Shown here piece by piece: positions 1 to 62,781 of a stretch of 64,000 nucleotides of DNA. The translations under genes were made by a program, and so were the position numbers. Under the pieces are notes generated by a model. The model worked only from the letters and a program-made list of their open reading frames with translations. It was not told where the DNA came from and did not search any database. Each line of letters begins with the position of its first letter. Position 1 is the first letter of the stretch. Where the stretch lies: NCBI RefSeq assembly GCF_055900595.2, contig NZ_CM148325.1, one strand, 5' to 3'.

Positions 1-61
1 CCTTATGCAAAGATTCATAATCCAGACCATCGAGATGGCAGTGTGAGTCGACTAAAAACAT
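1..61 (-). CDS. ycfH: TatD-family hydrolase YcfH, N-terminal 20 codons only (gene continues past window start)
   Basis: Reverse complement of 1..61 translates MFLVDSHCHLDGLDYESLHK, the remembered YcfH N-terminus; position immediately downstream of holB matches conserved order. Confidence 0.8.
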   Translation of the reverse strand, partial: MFLVDSHCHLDGLDYESLHK

Positions 62-71
62 GATGTCTCTC

Positions 72-1076
72 TTAAAGATGAGGAACCGGTAGCACAACGC
101 CCGGTTGCAGGTAATGCTCAATACGCAGTAAAAGATCGGTGATGAGAAGCTCTCGGTTAATACCTGTGACAGACATTAACTGTTCACGAATGTGGCAAAC
201 ATCCCCCAGTATAGCCTGCAGACGCGAGGGAGAAAGATGGTTTGCCAGTTCGACGACCAGGCCCGGCACATCAACATTGGTAACCTGCGCAGCGCCATGA
301 TGGCGTTTTAGCGCATCCATCAGCAACGTTGCCAGCCAGTGTAAACGCGCCGGAGCTTGTTCATGATTAAGGGCCGCTAGCAGCGAATACCAGTCGCCCG
401 ATTGCACGCTATATGCCAGCGCCTGACACAATGTTTCACGAGCCTGCCAGATATCTCCCTGAAACAACGCCAGTGCCGCACCAGGCGAACCGGCGCTTAA
501 GCGCAATGCGGCAAGTAATGCATCCTGTGACATTGTCACTTCGCGTGAAAGCCAGGTCACGGCGTACTGTTCCGGCGGCGGCGCAAGGTAATGTAACCGA
601 CAACGACTACGTAATGTTGCCAGTAAACGTTCAGGCTCGCGGGTAGCAAGGAAAAACCAGGTTTCTGCTGGCGGCTCTTCAAGCGTTTTCAGCAATGCGT
701 TAGCCGCGGCGTCAGTCAGTAAGGCAGCATCGGTTACCCAGACAACTTTCGCACCACCTAAGCGTGCGTGCTCATTTAACTTTTCGGTGACTTCACGTAC
801 CGCATCAATGCCCAGCGCATTTTTCCCTTTTTCGGGAGCCAGGGTGTAATAATCGGGATGCGTGCCAGCCTGCATCAACTGACATCCACGACAGTGACCG
901 CAACTTTTGTGGCCCTGCGGTTGTTGGCAGAGTAAATAACGGCTCAGGGCGTAGATTAAAGCATCCTCGCCCATACCCGGTAACGCCTGAATGAGTAGCG
1001 CATGGTGACCTCTTCCGGCCTGATAGCTGGCTACCAGTTTTTCGAAATCAGGTCGTAACCATGGATACCATCTCAT
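72..1076 (-). CDS. holB: DNA polymerase III delta-prime subunit
   Basis: ORF track 72..1097; trimmed to [14 protein letters not shown] start (334 aa). Start overlaps tmk stop. Confidence 0.95.
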
Positions 1077-1714
1077 GCGTCCAACTCCTTCACCCAATTG
1101 GTCACGGTAGTGCGGATTGCATCCATCACGGACTCCAGCGGCTGGGTGGCATCAATGGTATGAATGCTTTTATCTTGTGCTGCCACTTCCAGATAGCGGG
1201 CGCGGGTGCGATTAAAGAAATCGAAAGACTCTTGCTCAATACGATCCAGCTCGCCGCGCGCACGCGCGCGTTTTAAGCCAACTTCCGGGGTAACATCGAG
1301 ATAGAGCGTTAAGTCGGGGCGAAAATCCCCGAGAACAGCATCACGCAATGTTGCCAGCATATGTTGGTCAATACCACGTCCGCCGCCCTGATACGCCTGA
1401 GTGGAGAGATCGTGGCGATCGCCAATCACCCAGGTGCCGTTAGTCAGCGCAGGTTTGATGACCGTTTCTACCAGTTGAACGCGCGCGGCATAAAACATCA
1501 GAACTTCGGCTTTATCGGTAATGACTTCATCGCCTACCGATTTGATATCCAGCACCAGGCTTCTTAACTTTTCGGCAAGTTGCGTACCGCCAGGTTCCCG
1601 AGTGAAAACCATGTCGCGGATACCCAGTTGCTCGAGCGTCTCAACCACCACGTTACGCGCGGTAGTTTTGCCTGCGCCTTCCAGCCCCTCAATGACGATA
1701 TACTTACTGCGCAT
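1073..1714 (-). CDS. tmk: thymidylate kinase
   Basis: 213 aa, [19 protein letters not shown]-loop N-terminus; conserved position between mltG and holB. Confidence 0.95.
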
Positions 1715-2726
1715 TTTTTTCCTTAAGCACTTTCAGATAATCCTGCACAGACTTGTTATGACTGGCAAGATTGGTATTAAACGTGTGACCACCTTTACCA
1801 TCGGCCACAAAATAGAGATACGGCGTTTTTGCCGGATGCGCAGCAGCCTTCAGCGAATCCGCCCCCGGCGTCGCTATCGCACCTGGCGGCAAACCGGTAA
1901 TGGTATAGGTGTTATACGCTGTCGGCGTTTCCAGGTCTGCACGAGAAAGTTTGCCATTATAACGCTCTCCCATCCCGTAAATCACGGTCGGGTCGGTCTG
2001 CAGGCGCATACCAATGCGTAAACGGTTGATAAATACCGAGGCAACCTGATCGCGTTCGCTGGAAACGGCGGTTTCTTTTTCGATAATTGATGCCATCGTC
2101 ACCAACTGGTTTTTATCTTTATAAGGCAGACCGTCAGCACGCCCTTCCCAGGCGCTATCGACCGCTTTCACCATTTTCTTGTGTGCACGCTTGAGTAACG
2201 CGACATCTGTGGTATTAGCGGTATACATCCAGGTGTCTGGCCAGAACCAACCTTCAATCCACTCCGGGTTTTCCAGTTCAAGTGCCTGCGCTACGGTGGC
2301 GTACTTATCGTCGCTCAGCGTGTGCTTGATATACGGGGCCTCACGCAATTGCTTGAGGTAATCGCTCAAACGCATCCCTTCTACCAGTCGCAGAGGGAAC
2401 TGTGCTTCTTTACCGCTTTCCAGCAATTTCAGCATCTCACGTACGGTCATCTGCGGTGTAAAGCGGTAAGTCCCGGCTTTAAAGTGAGAAAGATCCGGTT
2501 CGATACGCAGCAGCCATTGAAAAACCCGTGGGCGATTGATGATCTTATCGGCGTAAAGCTGTTCACCGAGCGCCAGACGTCCGGTCCCTGGCTTCAGGGT
2601 AAATATCGTCTCTTCTTTGATAAGCAATTTGCTGTCGGCAAGATGGCGAACCTTCCAGACGCCCACACCAGCGGCGATACCCAGTACCACCAGCAATAAC
2701 AAGATAATCAATAACACTTTTTTCAT
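1704..2726 (-). CDS. mltG: endolytic murein transglycosylase (YceG family)
   Basis: 340 aa with N-terminal membrane anchor; overlaps tmk start by 11 nt. Confidence 0.93.
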
Positions 2727-2728
2727 GA

Positions 2729-3538
2729 CTAATTCGGGCGCTCACAAAGTGGGGCTAAATATTCATATAACGTTGCTGACGAAAAGGAGACATCGCCACA
2801 GGCACGTACGGGCATCACTGGCATTAACGCATTACAAATAACCATCTCATCTGCCTGCAACGCCTCTTCCAGAGTGGCTTGCACTTCGACAAGCTGATAA
2901 GAGGATTGTGCCAGTAAACGGATACAGAATTGTCGCATAATGCCGTTAACACCTGCCTGCTCTAGTCGCGGCGTATAAACTACATTGCCCTTCCGCCAGA
3001 ACAAATTAGCCGCACAGCATTCCGTAACCCACCCTTCGCTGTCAAGGACCAGCGCCTCATCAGCGTTTGTCTGCTCAAGATGAGAGCGGATCAATACTTG
3101 TTCAAGCCGATTAAGATGTTTAATACCTGCAAGATGAGGATTGCGCCCCAGCCGCACCGGGCTTAGCGCCAACATCATCCCCTCGTTACGCAAACGATCG
3201 TAATGTGCAGGATAAGCCGTAACGGAGAGAATCCGCGTTGCCGGTCCGCTGTTCAATGTGCTGTACCCTCGCCCGCCACTACCGCGACTGATCACGACCT
3301 TCAGCACACCATTCTGCTGTTCTGCTGCCAGCGTTTTCATCTCTTGTTCAAGCTGAGGCCAGAAGTCACAGGAAATCATCAACCGCTGACAAGCATCCTG
3401 TAGTCGCTGGATATGTGCCGATAACAAACTGACTTTACCGTCGATAACTCTGGCGGTGGTAAAACAACCATCACCAAACTGCGTTGCTCGATCGCTTACT
3501 GCCAGCGATTCCTGCTTATGACCGTTAATTAAGAACAT
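2729..3538 (-). CDS. pabC: aminodeoxychorismate lyase
   Basis: 269 aa fold-type IV PLP enzyme; AAGGAG ribosome-binding site upstream of ATG at 3538. Confidence 0.93.
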
Positions 3539-3645
3539 ACCGGCTCCTTATCAGAGAATTGTTAGTGTGGCAGCATGTTCACTACAGAACAAGTCGGAAT
3601 AAAAGCTAATAAATATCCTCCGGCATAGCCGGAGGTTTTTCAAAT

Positions 3646-4358
3646 GCGCCTGTAAGGCTCTGTTACCAGCCGCGCCCTAACAGGCGCATACGATCTGACA
3701 TTTGCATTCAACTTCGTTACTTACGGCCCGTAAACGGGCTGCCCGGATATGGAATCGATAACTGCTCCCCCATTTTATCCTCTTCAAGCTGGTGCTTTAT
3801 GTAGTCCTGTATCTTCGCCGTGTTCTTACCCACCGTATCGACATAGTACCCTCGGCACCAGAACTCCCTGTTTCTGTATTTGAATTTCAAATCCCCAAAC
3901 TGCTCGTAAAGCATCAGACTGCTTTTCCCTTTCAGATATCCCATAAAGCCGGATACGCTCATTTTGGGTGGGATTTCCACAAGCATATGGATATGATCTG
4001 CGCAGCACTCTGCTTCCAGAATCCGTACGCTTTTCCACTCACACAGCTTTCTCAAAATACTGCCTATCGCCCTACGCTTCTCTCCGTAAAACGCCAGTCT
4101 TCGGTATTTCGGCGCAAAAACTATGTGATATTTACAGTTCCAGCGGGTGTGCGCTAAGCTCTTTTCGTCCCCCATTGGGACCCCCTTTTGATTTCTTGTT
4201 TGACACTTGCAGTTGCCAGACCGCAAGGTGTTTTAACAAATCAAAAGGGGTTTTAATAACTGGCTCAAAGCTGAAAGCTTTCCGGAACCCCCAGCCTAGC
4301 TGGGGGTTTTCTGTGCACAAGAAAAAAGGCCCGCAAGCGGACCTTTTATAAGGGTGGG
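3646..4358 (-). mobile_element. IS200-type insertion sequence (IS200/IS605 family, tnpA only); boundaries approximate (about +/-40 bp)
   Basis: Intact Y1/HuH transposase ORF, stem-loop sequestering its ribosome-binding site (around 4180..4240), perfect palindrome AACCCCCAGCCTAGCTGGGGGTT at 4284..4306, imperfect hairpins near both ends. The fabF-pabC gap is 830 bp here versus roughly 120 bp as I recall for K-12. Confidence 0.75.
3717..4175 (-). CDS. tnpA: IS200 transposase TnpA (Y1 HuH single-strand transposase)
   Basis: 152 aa from MGDEKSLAHTRWNCKYHIVFAPKYRR, with HIHMLVEIPP HuH motif and catalytic-Tyr region; ORF track begins 17 codons upstream. Confidence 0.9.
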   Translation of the reverse strand: MGDEKSLAHTRWNCKYHIVFAPKYRRLAFYGEKRRAIGSILRKLCEWKSVRILEAECCADHIHMLVEIPPKMSVSGFMGYLKGKSSLMLYEQFGDLKFKYRNREFWCRGYYVDTVGKNTAKIQDYIKHQLEEDKMGEQLSIPYPGSPFTGRK

Positions 4359-4368
4359 AAATGACAAC

Positions 4369-5640
<1,272 letters not shown>

Positions 5641-5697
5641 CTAGTGGGACAAAAAGATAAAACTCAGGCGGTCGAACGACCGCCTGGAGATGTTCAC

Positions 5698-5934
5698 TTA
5701 CGCCTGGTGGCCGTTGATGTAATCAATGGCAGCCTGAACGGTGGTGATTTTCTCAGCTTCTTCGTCCGGAATCTCAGTATCAAACTCTTCTTCCAGAGCC
5801 ATTACCAGCTCAACGGTGTCAAGAGAATCCGCGCCCAGGTCTTCAACGAAAGAAGCATTGTTGGTAACTTCTTCCTGCTTAACGCCCAGCTGTTCGCCGA
5901 TAATTTTCTTAACGCGTTCTTCGATAGTGCTCAT
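5698..5934 (-). CDS. acpP: acyl carrier protein
   Basis: 78 aa, [18 protein letters not shown] with DSLD phosphopantetheine site. Confidence 0.98.
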
Positions 5935-6144
5935 ACTCTTAAATTTCCTATCAAAACTCGCTTTCGCGATGGTTTTCGTAGTGTATAAAATGTTGAAAAA
6001 TTTGCAACTAAATCCCGGCAGGTCTTACCACGATTTTACGTTATTTTGAGGCCTTACCCCCCAATAACGCAAATCATTTTGCACTAATTATTACTCATAA
6101 CCACGCAGACTGCGCGCAACATGAGCATTTTGTGCAAATCGCGG

Positions 6145-19225: not shown

Positions 19226-20167
19226 TCAGAACAGATTATCAATGTTCATGCTGTAGGTTTTGCTCACCTTGTCGCTTATCGATTTCATCTGCTGAATCAT
19301 GTTGGTGAGTTTTCGGGCATAGTGAGGATCGGTAGCATAGCCCGCGTCCTGTAGGGCCTGCGCCCCCTGCTCCGCACTCGCGGCGGTCGTCACGGCAGCG
19401 TAGCGCGGGTTACGTGTTAATAGCCCAACGTAATCCGACAATGCTTCCAGATACGAGCTGTAGACCCGAAACTTCGCTTTTACTTTCTTCGCTTCGCCAT
19501 TTTCATATTCAGTCGTGGTGATTTCAGTGACTGGCCCTTTCCAGTTGCCAGAGGCTTTGACGCCAAACAGGTTATAGCTCGGCTCGCCGTTTTCACGGCG
19601 GATTTGCCGTTGCCCCCAGCCAGACTCCAGCGCCGCCTGAGCGAGGATCAAATGGTGTGGCACACCACTTTGCTGGCTTGCCAGTTGGGCGGGCAGTGAG
19701 AGTTGCGCGAGGAATGCTTTACTGTCACCTGGCAGCGAATCATCGTAGTTGCGTGGTACGGCCTTTTGCACCAGCTGCGAAAGCGTCTGATTTTGATAAC
19801 GCATCACGGTTTCGAGCGGGAATTTCATCGGTGCTGCTGGCGTGGACTCATCTGGCAACGGTTGTTCTGGCGTCATCTGTTTAACCATCATCTCTGCCAG
19901 CCCCAGGCCTTTGCCCGCCGTCATCTGTTGGGCAATCTGCTGGTCATACATACTGGTGTAGAGGCGAGTGTGCTCGCTGCTGAACAGGCCATCTTTTGGC
20001 AAAGCGTCGCGCATGCTTTTCAGCATCATCTGCACGAACATCCCTTCTACCTGACGGGCCACTGGACGGATATTTGCCGCTGGATCTTCGCCCGCTTTCG
20101 CCTTCAGTTCGTTGAGCGATTGCGCATCCCAGGCCGCACTCGCCAGTAGTTTGCTGTCGCTGATCAT
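19226..20167 (-). CDS. flgJ: flagellar rod-assembly protein and peptidoglycan hydrolase FlgJ
   Basis: ORF track trimmed to [17 protein letters not shown] (313 aa); start overlaps flgI stop. Confidence 0.93.
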   Translation of the reverse strand: MISDSKLLASAAWDAQSLNELKAKAGEDPAANIRPVARQVEGMFVQMMLKSMRDALPKDGLFSSEHTRLYTSMYDQQIAQQMTAGKGLGLAEMMVKQMTPEQPLPDESTPAAPMKFPLETVMRYQNQTLSQLVQKAVPRNYDDSLPGDSKAFLAQLSLPAQLASQQSGVPHHLILAQAALESGWGQRQIRRENGEPSYNLFGVKASGNWKGPVTEITTTEYENGEAKKVKAKFRVYSSYLEALSDYVGLLTRNPRYAAVTTAASAEQGAQALQDAGYATDPHYARKLTNMIQQMKSISDKVSKTYSMNIDNLF

Positions 20168-21267
20168 CAGATAATTTCCAGTTTTGCCCGCAGACATCCC
20201 GCACTTTGCATTGATTGCAAAATAGACATCAGATCCATCGGCGTAGCACCCAGCGCATTGAGCGCGCGCACCACGTTATTGAGGCTGGCACTGGAGCGTA
20301 CGCTTTGCAGCGAACCGCCGCTCTGGCGTAAGTCGATCTGTGTTTGTGGAGTAACCACAGTCTGCCCACCACCAAACGGTGTATCTGGCTGGCTGACATT
20401 GGCCTGGCGATTAACTGTTACTGAGAGATTCCCCTGCGCTACCGCGCAGCTGTCGAGGGTCACTTCGCGATTCATCACCACCGAACCAGTGCGCGAGTTA
20501 ATCACTACTTTAGCGTCCTGCGGGGTGACATTAACCTGCATATTCTGGATATCGGCAAGGAAACGGACCTGGGAACTGTTGCCACTCGGTACGCGCACCT
20601 GAATAGTCCGCGCATCTAACGCGGTGGCGCTGCCATATCCACGCACGCGGTTGATGGTGTCAGCGATTTGCTGCGCCATACTGAAATCTTCGTCGTTAAG
20701 TTGCAAATTAAGGGTATTCCCGACGCCAAATTGGCTGGGCAATTCACGTTCAATAACCGCACCATTGGTGATCCGTCCACCGTTCAGTTGGTTCACCTGA
20801 ACACTGCTACCGCCAGCGGAGGCCCCTGCGCCGCCAACCAGAATATTGCCCTGTGCCAGCGCATACACCTGACTGTCAACGCCCTTAAGCGGTGTCATCA
20901 ATAACGTACCGCCACGCAGACTTTTGGCATTTCCCATGGAAGAAACCACCACGTCAATGGTTTGCCCCTGACGTCCAAACGGTGGAAGTGACGCCGTCAC
21001 CATTACCGCAGCGACGTTTTTTAGCTGCATATTAGTGCCCGTCGGAACGGTAATTCCCAGCTGTGAGAGCATGTTATTAAGCGTTTGTGTGGTAAACGGC
21101 GTCTGAGTTGTCTGGTCACCGGTGCCATCCAGCCCCACCACCAGGCCATAGCCAATCAGTGAGTTTTGCCTTACCCCCTGAACACTGGTGAGATCGCGAA
21201 TACGCTCAGCCTGAGCTGCCGTGATAACCAGTAGAAGAATTAATGCAGAGAGAAATTTAATCACCAC
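20167..21267 (-). CDS. flgI: flagellar P-ring protein
   Basis: 366 aa with signal peptide (M)[19 protein letters not shown]. Confidence 0.95.
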
Positions 21268-44130: not shown

Positions 44131-48313
<4,183 letters not shown>

Positions 48314-58715: not shown

Positions 58716-59159
<444 letters not shown>

Positions 59160-59183
59160 TTATCAAAATCATTAAGTTAAGGT

Positions 59184-59244
59184 AGATACACATCTTGTCA
59201 TATGATCAAATGGTTTCGCCAAAAATCAATAATCAGACAACAAA

Positions 59245-59252
<8 letters not shown>
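59184..59252 (-). ncRNA. IS10 RNA-OUT antisense RNA (position inferred from canonical IS10 layout)
   Basis: Canonical IS10 places pOUT transcription from about nt 115 outward to about nt 47; mapped onto this copy by offset from the outside end. Confidence 0.5.
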
Positions 59253-61028
<1,776 letters not shown>

Positions 61029-61310: not shown

Positions 61311-61413
61311 TCTTTAAAGAAGAGCTCGTACGAAGGTACGGGCTTTTTTTTCGTATATTGCACACACCGGGGGATGAAAAGCCCCGACCGGGGTTCGACA
61401 ACTGGCGACAAAC

Positions 61414-62781
61414 TCAATCATCATCCTTGCAGTTGATAAGAATTTCTGCCTCTTTTACAACTATCTTATTACGTCCGGTTTCTTTCGCTTCATATAGTGC
61501 ATTATCAGCCATTCGATAGATTTCATTCGGATTTAACGCACTTCCCTGAGTCACCACAGCGCCAATGCTAATCGTCACTTTTTGCGGTATGGCGTATTCA
61601 GGATTATCGCCTGTCAAACGCTCTACATTTGCCCTTATCCTTTCGGCTAAAACTTTCGCGCTTTCAGTATCGGTCTCCGTCAGCAAGACGCCAAACTCTT
61701 CGCCGCCAACGCGTGCTAAAAGGTCATTTGGTCGTATGCTTTTCCCAATGATGCTCACCACTGTTTTTATCACCTGATCGCCAACCGGATGCCCCCACGT
61801 ATCGTTAACTTTTTTAAAGTGATCGATATCCATAATCATGACACAATAAGACGTTTTTTGGGCTGATGCTGATTGAGCCTTCAGTTCATTGAAAAAATAA
61901 TTCCTGTTAAATATATTAGTTAATGGATCGCGATGGGCAATGTTCTTTGTTACTCGTAGCGCACTGAAAATATGGCACATAAATATTACCATAACGGTTA
62001 ATTTACTGACTACTTCAATAGTGCGGCTAATATACCAAGTGGACACACTATACCTGCTCATAAATAACAGAGAGATATTATACAGCACGGCACAGAAAGC
62101 AATCACTGATACTCCATTCCAGATATCACAGCGTAAACCATTAAAGTATAGATTAACCAAAAGCAAGATTAACCACATGAAAATCATTATGGTAACATAT
62201 GAGGTTTTCCAGACTACCTGACCATTTTCATTTGTTAACTCGGCAATATGTAAACTGTAGTCATCATAATGACTACTTAGCATGTGAGCAACTGCCGCCC
62301 CCCCAAAAATAAAAAATAGGCTTATACACAATGTCATTTTTTTGGAAAAAAAACAGCGTTTCTTATTGTTTTCACTAACTTTATTCACCAGCGCTAGCAA
62401 TATTAACATGCACAAACTCATCTGACGAAACAAATAATAAATTGCAATATCATTTTGTACAACGCTGCTTATCAAATGCCCCTCAATAAATTGCTGAATG
62501 ATAATGGCAGTTTTAACAAAGTAAATCAAACAACTCAGAAACGCTAAACTAAGTATACAGTTTGAAAATTGCACACGATCATAAATGAAATACAATTGCA
62601 TGAAAATAAATGCAACGGTATCGATAAAAAATAAAGCAATCATAACCATTAGATAGGTTGATCGTGGAACAACCTCCTCAACGGTTGGCTGATTAAACCA
62701 ACTATTTACCAAAACGAATGCAAGCCCAAACAATAAGCTCACCAATACAGTACTACTAATTCCCAAATAGTCTTTTTCCAT
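61414..62781 (-). CDS. dgcT: membrane-anchored diguanylate cyclase (GGDEF/GGEEF domain)
   Basis: Polytopic N-terminal domain plus C-terminal GGDEF domain with RVGGEEFGVLL active site; start set at MEKDYLGISSTVL (ORF track begins 30 codons upstream). Confidence 0.88.
   Translation of the reverse strand: MEKDYLGISSTVLVSLLFGLAFVLVNSWFNQPTVEEVVPRSTYLMVMIALFFIDTVAFIFMQLYFIYDRVQFSNCILSLAFLSCLIYFVKTAIIIQQFIEGHLISSVVQNDIAIYYLFRQMSLCMLILLALVNKVSENNKKRCFFSKKMTLCISLFFIFGGAAVAHMLSSHYDDYSLHIAELTNENGQVVWKTSYVTIMIFMWLILLLVNLYFNGLRCDIWNGVSVIAFCAVLYNISLLFMSRYSVSTWYISRTIEVVSKLTVMVIFMCHIFSALRVTKNIAHRDPLTNIFNRNYFFNELKAQSASAQKTSYCVMIMDIDHFKKVNDTWGHPVGDQVIKTVVSIIGKSIRPNDLLARVGGEEFGVLLTETDTESAKVLAERIRANVERLTGDNPEYAIPQKVTISIGAVVTQGSALNPNEIYRMADNALYEAKETGRNKIVVKEAEILINCKDDD

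Follow-up and report, generated by a model that had tools for sequence, protein, structure and literature searches.

Genuine and conserved overlaps between consecutive genes of the mltG-tmk-holB run of Escherichia coli, and the translational coupling that they may support

Co-directional overlaps between neighbouring genes are an ordinary feature of prokaryotic genomes, where they typically involve about 15% of the gene pairs (PMC6728339), and the overlap spacings -4, -1 and -8 are found enriched (PMC12548453). Two models have been considered for the translational coupling of such genes, one based on RNA unfolding and the other on reinitiation or scanning (PMC12548453); coupling is most efficient at spacings from -4 to +3 and declines as the overlaps lengthen beyond -4, with +1 to +3 being as efficient as -4 in E. 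coli (PMC12548453). Experimental coupling, measured with dual reporters, is documented for hyfHI, astDB, ydbH/ynbE and menDH (PMC6728339); among the five native E. coli -4 pairs studied by Huber et al., strong coupling was measured in three and coupling of about 60% in a fourth, while the fifth was uncoupled (PMC6728339). Indeed, bioBF has a -4 overlap without any coupling (PMC6728339); thus, the geometry of a junction is no guarantee of the mechanism, and a short overlap taken by itself is a hint of coupling, not a diagnostic sign of it.

One of the junctions considered here, in which the 3′-end of tmk overlaps holB, has been explicitly described both in Pseudomonas putida KT2440 (PMC10653934) and in a study on the recoding of the E. 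coli genome (bioRxiv 10.1101/069385). The latter reported that the second codon of holB (AGA) overlaps the tmk stop codon; the replacement of this AGA with CGU, attempted by Napolitano et al., failed because it destroyed the tmk stop, producing a Stop214Cys change with the addition of 14 amino acids to Tmk (bioRxiv 10.1101/069385). The solution was the insertion of a 3-nt stop codon in front of the ATG of holB, which gave viable cells with both genes functional (bioRxiv 10.1101/069385); since the ATGA was replaced in these viable cells, the exact overlap between tmk and holB is dispensable. In P. putida the two genes were regarded as coupled in translation, and a junction redesigned to TGATG is functional (PMC10653934), so that tmk/holB has been re-engineered in both species with functional outcomes.

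The sequence analysed, hereafter the window, is a stretch of 64,000 nucleotides of an E. coli chromosome, collinear in reverse orientation with positions 1,091.7-1,156.8 kb of K-12 MG1655 at about 97-98% identity. On the minus strand, to which all the features described below belong, the local gene order is fabF, an IS200 copy, pabC, mltG (yceG), tmk, holB and ycfH. The tightly spaced run pabC-mltG-tmk-holB-ycfH opens with pabC (2729..3538), which has a strong Shine-Dalgarno sequence (TAAGGAG, dG -8.5) and whose initiation site is recorded in data from INRI-seq and from Ribo-RET, in vitro and in vivo (PMC9825163). It is followed by mltG (1704..2726, 340 aa, matching K-12 b1097), by tmk for the dTMP kinase (1073..1714, 213 aa, matching b1098), and by holB for the δ′ subunit of DNA polymerase III (72..1076, 334 aa), with ATG at 1076..1074, TAA at 74..72, and the same start as b1099. 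According to the sequence reading and the K-12 annotation, a 10-nt spacer (62..71) then separates holB from the ycfH ATG (61..59), the whole junction spanning 59..71; this +10 spacing is found in 68 of 77 species. The intergenic spacing is close throughout the run, and a consensus scan of the minus strand over positions 1..4400, a weak method, revealed no sigma-70-like promoter or terminator-like site between the genes; an Rfam scan of positions 1..6000 returned the IS200-associated STnc490 alone, and none at the junctions.

Four overlaps can be read in the window. The tmk and holB genes share the 4 nt of an ATGA at 1073..1076 (-4), formed by the tmk TGA (1075..1073) and the holB ATG (1076..1074), while mltG and tmk share the 11 nt ATGCGCAGTAA at 1704..1714 (-11), between the tmk ATG (1714..1712) and the mltG TAA (1706..1704). 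In the flagellar operon, flgI and flgJ meet in a TGATG at 20165..20169 (-1), the flgI TGA (20169..20167) and the flgJ ATG (20167..20165) having the single base 20167 in common, and opgG and opgH share the 8 nt ATGAATAA at 46667..46674 (-8), between the opgH ATG (46674..46672) and the opgG TAA (46669..46667). The first-pass annotation had reported the first two overlaps, with lengths of 4 and 11 nt, and a like pattern at the other two junctions; its coordinates and lengths are correct on the minus strand, and direct reading agrees with it at flgI/flgJ and opgG/opgH as well. All four join neighbouring cistrons on one strand, over a few nucleotides, in presumed operons of an ordinary kind, namely pabC-mltG-tmk-holB-ycfH, flgB-L and opgGH.

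The same geometry is present in the RefSeq annotation of K-12 MG1655, where mltG (1154112..1155134), tmk (1155124..1155765) and holB (1155762..1156766) follow each other, position 1137371 is both the last of flgI and the first of flgJ, and opgG, ending at 1110870, and opgH, starting at 1110863, overlap at 1110863..1110870. PGAP annotations of two other E. coli genomes, one 98%-identical and one 99.9%-identical, also use these starts, including those of flgI/flgJ and opgG/opgH. Comparison with reference starts, which the first-pass annotation had proposed as a check, thus yielded the same overlapping starts in K-12 and in the PGAP genomes and not different, non-overlapping ones. The termini of FlgI/J and OpgG/H were compared with annotation only, while the cross-species work concerned the pabC-ycfH operon in Enterobacteriaceae; there, both frames of mltG, tmk and holB correspond to real, conserved proteins with these termini, as seen from family profiles, PDB chains and about 78 species. 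The overlaps are therefore real, correctly annotated, conserved and ordinary; the operon architecture was already known, and tmk/holB had been described and manipulated before.

There is nothing unusual in how many overlaps occur. The corresponding K-12 region contains 67 protein genes forming 52 co-directional adjacent pairs, and the pairs that overlap are exactly these four (4/52), to be set against the typical value of about 15% given above, with nine further co-directional pairs separated by gaps of +1 to +10 nt; there is no excess over chance in the count, while the conservation does exceed chance. As in the overlapping pairs described in 2019 and in the review by Brown & Wade (2025), the genes lie on the same strand and within presumed operons, and tmk and holB have their Shine-Dalgarno sequences in the 3′-end of the upstream gene. 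The lengths of 4, 1 and 8 nt are each one of the three enriched classes, with 11 nt falling in the same reading-frame class as 8. With its ATGA and intragenic Shine-Dalgarno sequence, tmk/holB is identical in arrangement to the coupled pairs hyfHI, astDB, ydbH/ynbE and menDH (PMC6728339); however, Tmk and HolB do not belong to a common complex, as the products of many such pairs do. Other features differ from those of the best-coupled pairs: the spacings -11 and -8 exceed the most efficient range, and both opgH and flgJ are devoid of a well-placed strong Shine-Dalgarno sequence. The pairs tmk/holB (-4), flgI/flgJ (-1) and the non-overlapping pabC/mltG (+2) fall within the efficient range, whereas opgG/opgH (-8) and mltG/tmk (-11) are marginal.

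The Shine-Dalgarno sequence of holB is AAGGAG (1085..1090), located 8 nt before the ATG and within tmk codons 208-210; its duplex with the 16S 3′-end has an energy of -8.3 kcal/mol, and the GGAG core persists among the species, including those in which the Tmk residue is different. Such a strong sequence could, on the other hand, permit holB to initiate alone. The tmk gene has a TAAGGA (1720..1725, duplex dG -6.1 kcal/mol) within the last codons of mltG, with an A-rich spacer (1715..1719) between it and the ATG. No Shine-Dalgarno sequence is found for mltG, where the duplex reaches only -1.9 kcal/mol. The ribosome-binding sites that mltG and tmk carry for the next gene are functional and, as the comparison among species indicates, under selection.

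This comparison was based on the best 80 genome loci, all from Enterobacteriaceae and with Tmk 83-98% identical, 79 of which were usable for each junction; a search for homologous proteins likewise gave Enterobacteriaceae only among the matches listed. For conservation outside this family, the argument would rest on the P. putida paper (PMC10653934). The mltG/tmk spacing is -11 in 77 of the 79 usable loci, with two exceptions: locus L049 has an assembly gap, and in Atlantibacter subterranea (L076) a 3-nt deletion took out the mltG stop and brought the overlap to 23 nt; the tmk/holB spacing is -4 in 78 of 79, the exception being again A. subterranea, with a TAATG (-1). Within E. coli, the 45-mer spanning the tmk/holB junction was matched in 5388 of the 5426 genomes. 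The invariance of the -11 and -4 spacings could also reflect the mere difficulty of changing a spacing within two coding frames.

Synonymous diversity was determined in about 75 species. In the last eight codons of mltG it falls to 0.091, against a gene mean of 0.478, which is the lowest of 333 windows along the gene (rank 1), and in the last eight codons of tmk to 0.262, against a mean of 0.473 (rank 1 of 206); the control, namely the holB 3′-end with the 10-nt gap after it, shows no dip (rank 270 of 327). Across 75 species, no synonymous variation is seen in the mltG codons AAG GAA AAA AAT. The constrained bases reach past those that are dual-coding, to include CTT AAG GAA AAA, containing the TAAGGA and the A-rich spacer of tmk, and the GGAG before holB; therefore, the ribosome-binding sites themselves are under selection. 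The 3′-ends of mltG and tmk thus hold a second layer of information, consisting of the ribosome-binding site and the start of the next gene, and for this reason synonymous recoding in these regions can be harmful, as happened with the second codon of holB and the stop of tmk (bioRxiv 10.1101/069385).

Translational coupling at these pairs, as proposed by the first-pass annotation, would be a reasonable and plausible reading of the sequence. The explanation that we favour, and that we consider fairly probable, combines fixed, genuine overlaps and embedded ribosome-binding sites with a translation that mixes de novo initiation and coupling. Each downstream gene starts at its annotated ATG, and the ribosome-binding sites of tmk and holB lie inside the final codons of the upstream gene, where purifying selection retains them. 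Ribosomes would reach the downstream genes by two routes, most likely mixed: de novo initiation guided by the Shine-Dalgarno sequence, and a coupling by reinitiation or ribosome delivery, in which the ribosome terminating on the upstream gene would be recaptured by the adjacent start. Coupling, whose contribution we infer, would probably matter most where start and stop lie within about 4 nt, as in tmk/holB, flgI/flgJ and pabC/mltG, and least where the starts demonstrably work alone, at mltG/tmk (-11) and opgG/opgH (-8).

Data on initiation are provided by INRI-seq (PMC9825163), which uses for each gene a fragment from -30 to about +150, a transcript of about 200 nt, translated in isolation in the presence of retapamulin. 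Since these fragments carry no upstream open reading frame, a signal corresponds to de novo initiation without upstream translation. In Table S2 of that study, tmk gives 10-15 CPM and opgH 24-33, in five of five replicates, while flgJ is weak, with 6-10 in four of five replicates; the annotated tmk start is found in all five replicates and also by Ribo-RET in vivo. The opgH start appears in the TRAINSPOTTER supplement too (PMC13245402), where holB, tmk and mltG are not among the entries listed. Thus, tmk and opgH initiate independently of upstream translation, and flgJ does so weakly. The same INRI-seq table gives, for the annotated starts of holB and mltG, zero in five of five replicates and zero by Ribo-RET in vivo, with their templates present in the pool at 70 and 195 CPM, respectively (PMC9825163). 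This silence fits a dependence on coupling; it is, however, weak evidence, because about 30% of the genes in vitro and about 82% in vivo are undetected overall (PMC9825163).

The alternative that survives best, somewhat unlikely in our judgement, is that no functional coupling exists: the overlaps would be neutral by-products, and every downstream gene would be translated purely de novo from its own internal ribosome-binding site. Proposed neutral origins include genome compaction, the ease with which an ATG followed by A makes a TGA, and the loss of a stop with extension to the next one; the A. subterranea locus, in which the overlap simply grew to 23 nt after the deletion, would be an example of the last, and a review ascribes the abundance of -4 overlaps partly to evolutionary ease (PMC12548453). 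The absence of coupling would also be in line with the initiation of tmk and opgH, and weakly of flgJ, on isolated transcripts of about 200 nt, with that of tmk in vivo under retapamulin, with the strong and conserved Shine-Dalgarno sequences of holB and tmk, with the viability of cells in which the ATGA was replaced (bioRxiv 10.1101/069385), and with the uncoupled bioBF pair (PMC6728339). Against it stand the zero de novo signal at holB despite its AAGGAG, the finding that most of the tested E. coli -4 pairs are coupled (PMC6728339), and above all mltG, which has neither a Shine-Dalgarno sequence nor detectable de novo initiation and yet is expressed and conserved, with a start kept tight in 70 species.

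The pabC/mltG junction is indeed the most suggestive case of coupling. It reads TAGTCATG at 2724..2731 (+2), with the pabC TAG at 2731..2729 and the mltG ATG at 2726..2724, that is, 2 nt past the pabC stop, and no Shine-Dalgarno sequence for mltG. Among 70 Enterobacteriaceae, 36 have a spacing of +2, 24 of -4, eight of +1, and one each of +4 and +8, so that the mltG start lies at most 8 nt away from the pabC stop; this drift within -4 to +8, together with the lack of a Shine-Dalgarno sequence, suggests that the tightness itself is selected. The junction is an equally good candidate for coupling, which the first-pass annotation omitted because it has no overlap. In this operon holB and mltG are the best coupling candidates, the latter having no overlap with its upstream neighbour.

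A stronger form of coupling, which we regard as doubtful, is that holB and mltG may be cistrons translated by reinitiation only, with starts essentially unusable by free ribosomes, so that the run would act as a translational relay. Were this the case, the supply of the δ′ subunit of the clamp loader would be tied to the ribosome flux through the dTMP kinase gene, and the supply of MltG to that of PabC.

Much less probable is a coupling by RNA unfolding, in which a structure would hide the Shine-Dalgarno sequence and start of the downstream gene until opened by the ribosomes finishing the upstream one. A minimum free energy fold of the tmk/holB junction, obtained from the window sequence, does pair the AAGGAG and part of the AUG; furthermore, when folding energies from -30 to +15 were computed for each of the 67 K-12 starts that correspond to the window, holB, which is silent in INRI-seq, had a dG of -8.4 and ranked 11 of 67 in stability, and the INRI-seq authors report a tendency towards more structure at the starts that were undetected (PMC9825163). 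However, compared with shuffled sequences, the five junction windows have no advantage in folding (z from -0.54 to +0.99), the predicted fold leaves the A-rich ribosome-binding site of tmk unpaired, and the consensus fold of tmk/holB, from an alignment of 68 sequences (the window and 67 Enterobacteriaceae loci), has an energy of -1.83 kcal/mol with six trivial pairs and no compensatory changes. No conserved occluding RNA structure was thus seen in the five single-sequence junction folds or in the 68-sequence tmk/holB alignment. RNA structure as the main mechanism of coupling was discarded, what was found being a mild, non-conserved structure at holB.

The first-pass annotation had taken the overlaps as typical of tight operons and as support for its choice of starts. 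Overlaps, tight operons and starts are all correct; an overlap by itself is, however, weak support for a start, and the choices hold for reasons independent of it. In the case of tmk, the ATG at 1714 is the first start codon of the open reading frame, and no ATG, GTG or TTG occurs between the upstream in-frame stop and the P-loop; therefore, the 11-nt overlap is forced. PDB entry 4TMK, the crystallised enzyme, aligns over residues 1-213 with the 213-aa product. For holB there are two candidate starts, the ATG at 1076 and a TTG at 1097, each of which overlaps tmk; the δ′ chain present in 27 PDB entries is 334 aa long and begins with MRWYPW, matching the ATG. NCBIfam equivalog profiles match end to end, PRK10270 on MltG (1-340 of 340) and PRK07993 on HolB (1-334 of 334), and likewise for Tmk, and the conservation of N-termini and start codons extends to about 78 species.

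That the overlaps are annotation artefacts, with the true starts lying elsewhere, downstream or upstream, and the genes having no real overlap, can practically be dismissed: start prediction is generally error-prone, and Table S3 of the INRI-seq study lists alternative peaks on GTG codons, one being the in-frame codon 4 of mltG and the other lying 16 nt upstream of the tmk ATG, but the latter is in the mltG frame and just 3′ of a GGGAGGA that Table S6 shows to be artificial and derived from the T7 leader, the annotated tmk start is experimentally detected with no alternative before the P-loop, and full-length profile matches, conserved N-termini and the exactly annotated lengths of the crystallised, functional HolB and Tmk all contradict it. 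The starts of these overlapping pairs are thus confirmed as correctly placed, a result with little meaning beyond annotation quality.

The in-frame TTG (1095..1097), which begins the longest holB open reading frame, was rejected as a start. It has no Shine-Dalgarno sequence (duplex dG +0.6, against -8.3 kcal/mol at the ATG), and the seven additional residues that it would encode are missing from the native 334-aa δ′ chain of the 27 PDB entries (1A5T and others). The junction sequences across species indicate that this TTG is a by-product of a conserved tryptophan codon of Tmk.

The holB/ycfH spacer (window 62..71) measures 10 nt in 68 of the 77 species compared through the Enterobacteriaceae loci L006-L085, and it carries the conserved motif GAGAGAGACAT(T/C)ATG; therefore, the whole minus-strand run pabC-mltG-tmk-holB-ycfH has fixed and tight junctions, of +2, -11, -4 and +10 in that order (minus for shared nucleotides, plus for a gap). 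The first of these, pabC/mltG (window 2724..2731; about 1480-1500 in L006-L085), varies among species between +2 (TAGTCATG), -4, which is the canonical ATGA overlap, and +1, and no recognisable Shine-Dalgarno sequence was found at this junction either in the window or in the same loci. Compared with the overlaps listed in the first-pass annotation, i.e., tmk/holB (-4), mltG/tmk (-11), flgI/flgJ (-1) and opgG/opgH (-8), pabC/mltG is the stronger candidate for obligatory coupling.

A natural variant of the mltG/tmk and tmk/holB junctions is found in Atlantibacter subterranea (locus L076, 2440-2560 and 3055-3165): the mltG stop codon is lost by a 3-nt deletion, with the mltG/tmk overlap growing from 11 to 23 nt, and tmk/holB is TAATG (-1), not ATGA.

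Two alternative in-vitro initiation peaks are reported in INRI-seq Table S3 (PMC9825163), both on the minus strand: one at the in-frame GTG that is codon 4 of mltG (2715..2717), and the other at a GTG in the mltG frame (1728..1730) that precedes the tmk ATG by 16 nt. The latter may be an artefact, since in the synthetic fragment the T7 leader gives rise to an artificial GGGAGGA, and this peak lies just 3' of it. Neither peak is backed by Ribo-RET in vivo.

An IS200 copy is located at 3614..4318, between the fabF terminator and pabC; it includes a minus-strand tnpA transposase gene (about 3717..4175, NCBIfam IS200 match) and, in its 5' region, an Rfam match to STnc490 (4185..4308, minus). Genome comparison revealed that this site is free of IS200 in K-12 and in strain Z0117EC0005 (99.9% identical), which has its own IS200 near ptsG/fhuE, while strain 2014C-3338 carries one, annotated as IS200C, at the identical site. 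As only about 75 nt remain between the IS200 copy and pabC on the upstream side, transcription of the pabC-mltG-tmk-holB operon may be altered.

Compared to K-12, ghrA carries a 1329-bp insertion (59138..60466), with terminal sequence CTGATGAATCCCCTAATGATTTT, flanked by the 9-bp direct repeat CGCCAGGCC (59129..59137 and 60467..60475) and containing a plus-strand gene for a 402-aa IS4 family transposase (59245..60453); it looks like an IS10 that disrupts ghrA. Further on, 46 bp (61411..61456) stand in place of K-12 segment 1094200..1097464, which holds IS3D, the ymdE pseudogene and ycdU; the dgcT-side flank of this replacement has only 92.7% identity to K-12, versus about 97% elsewhere.
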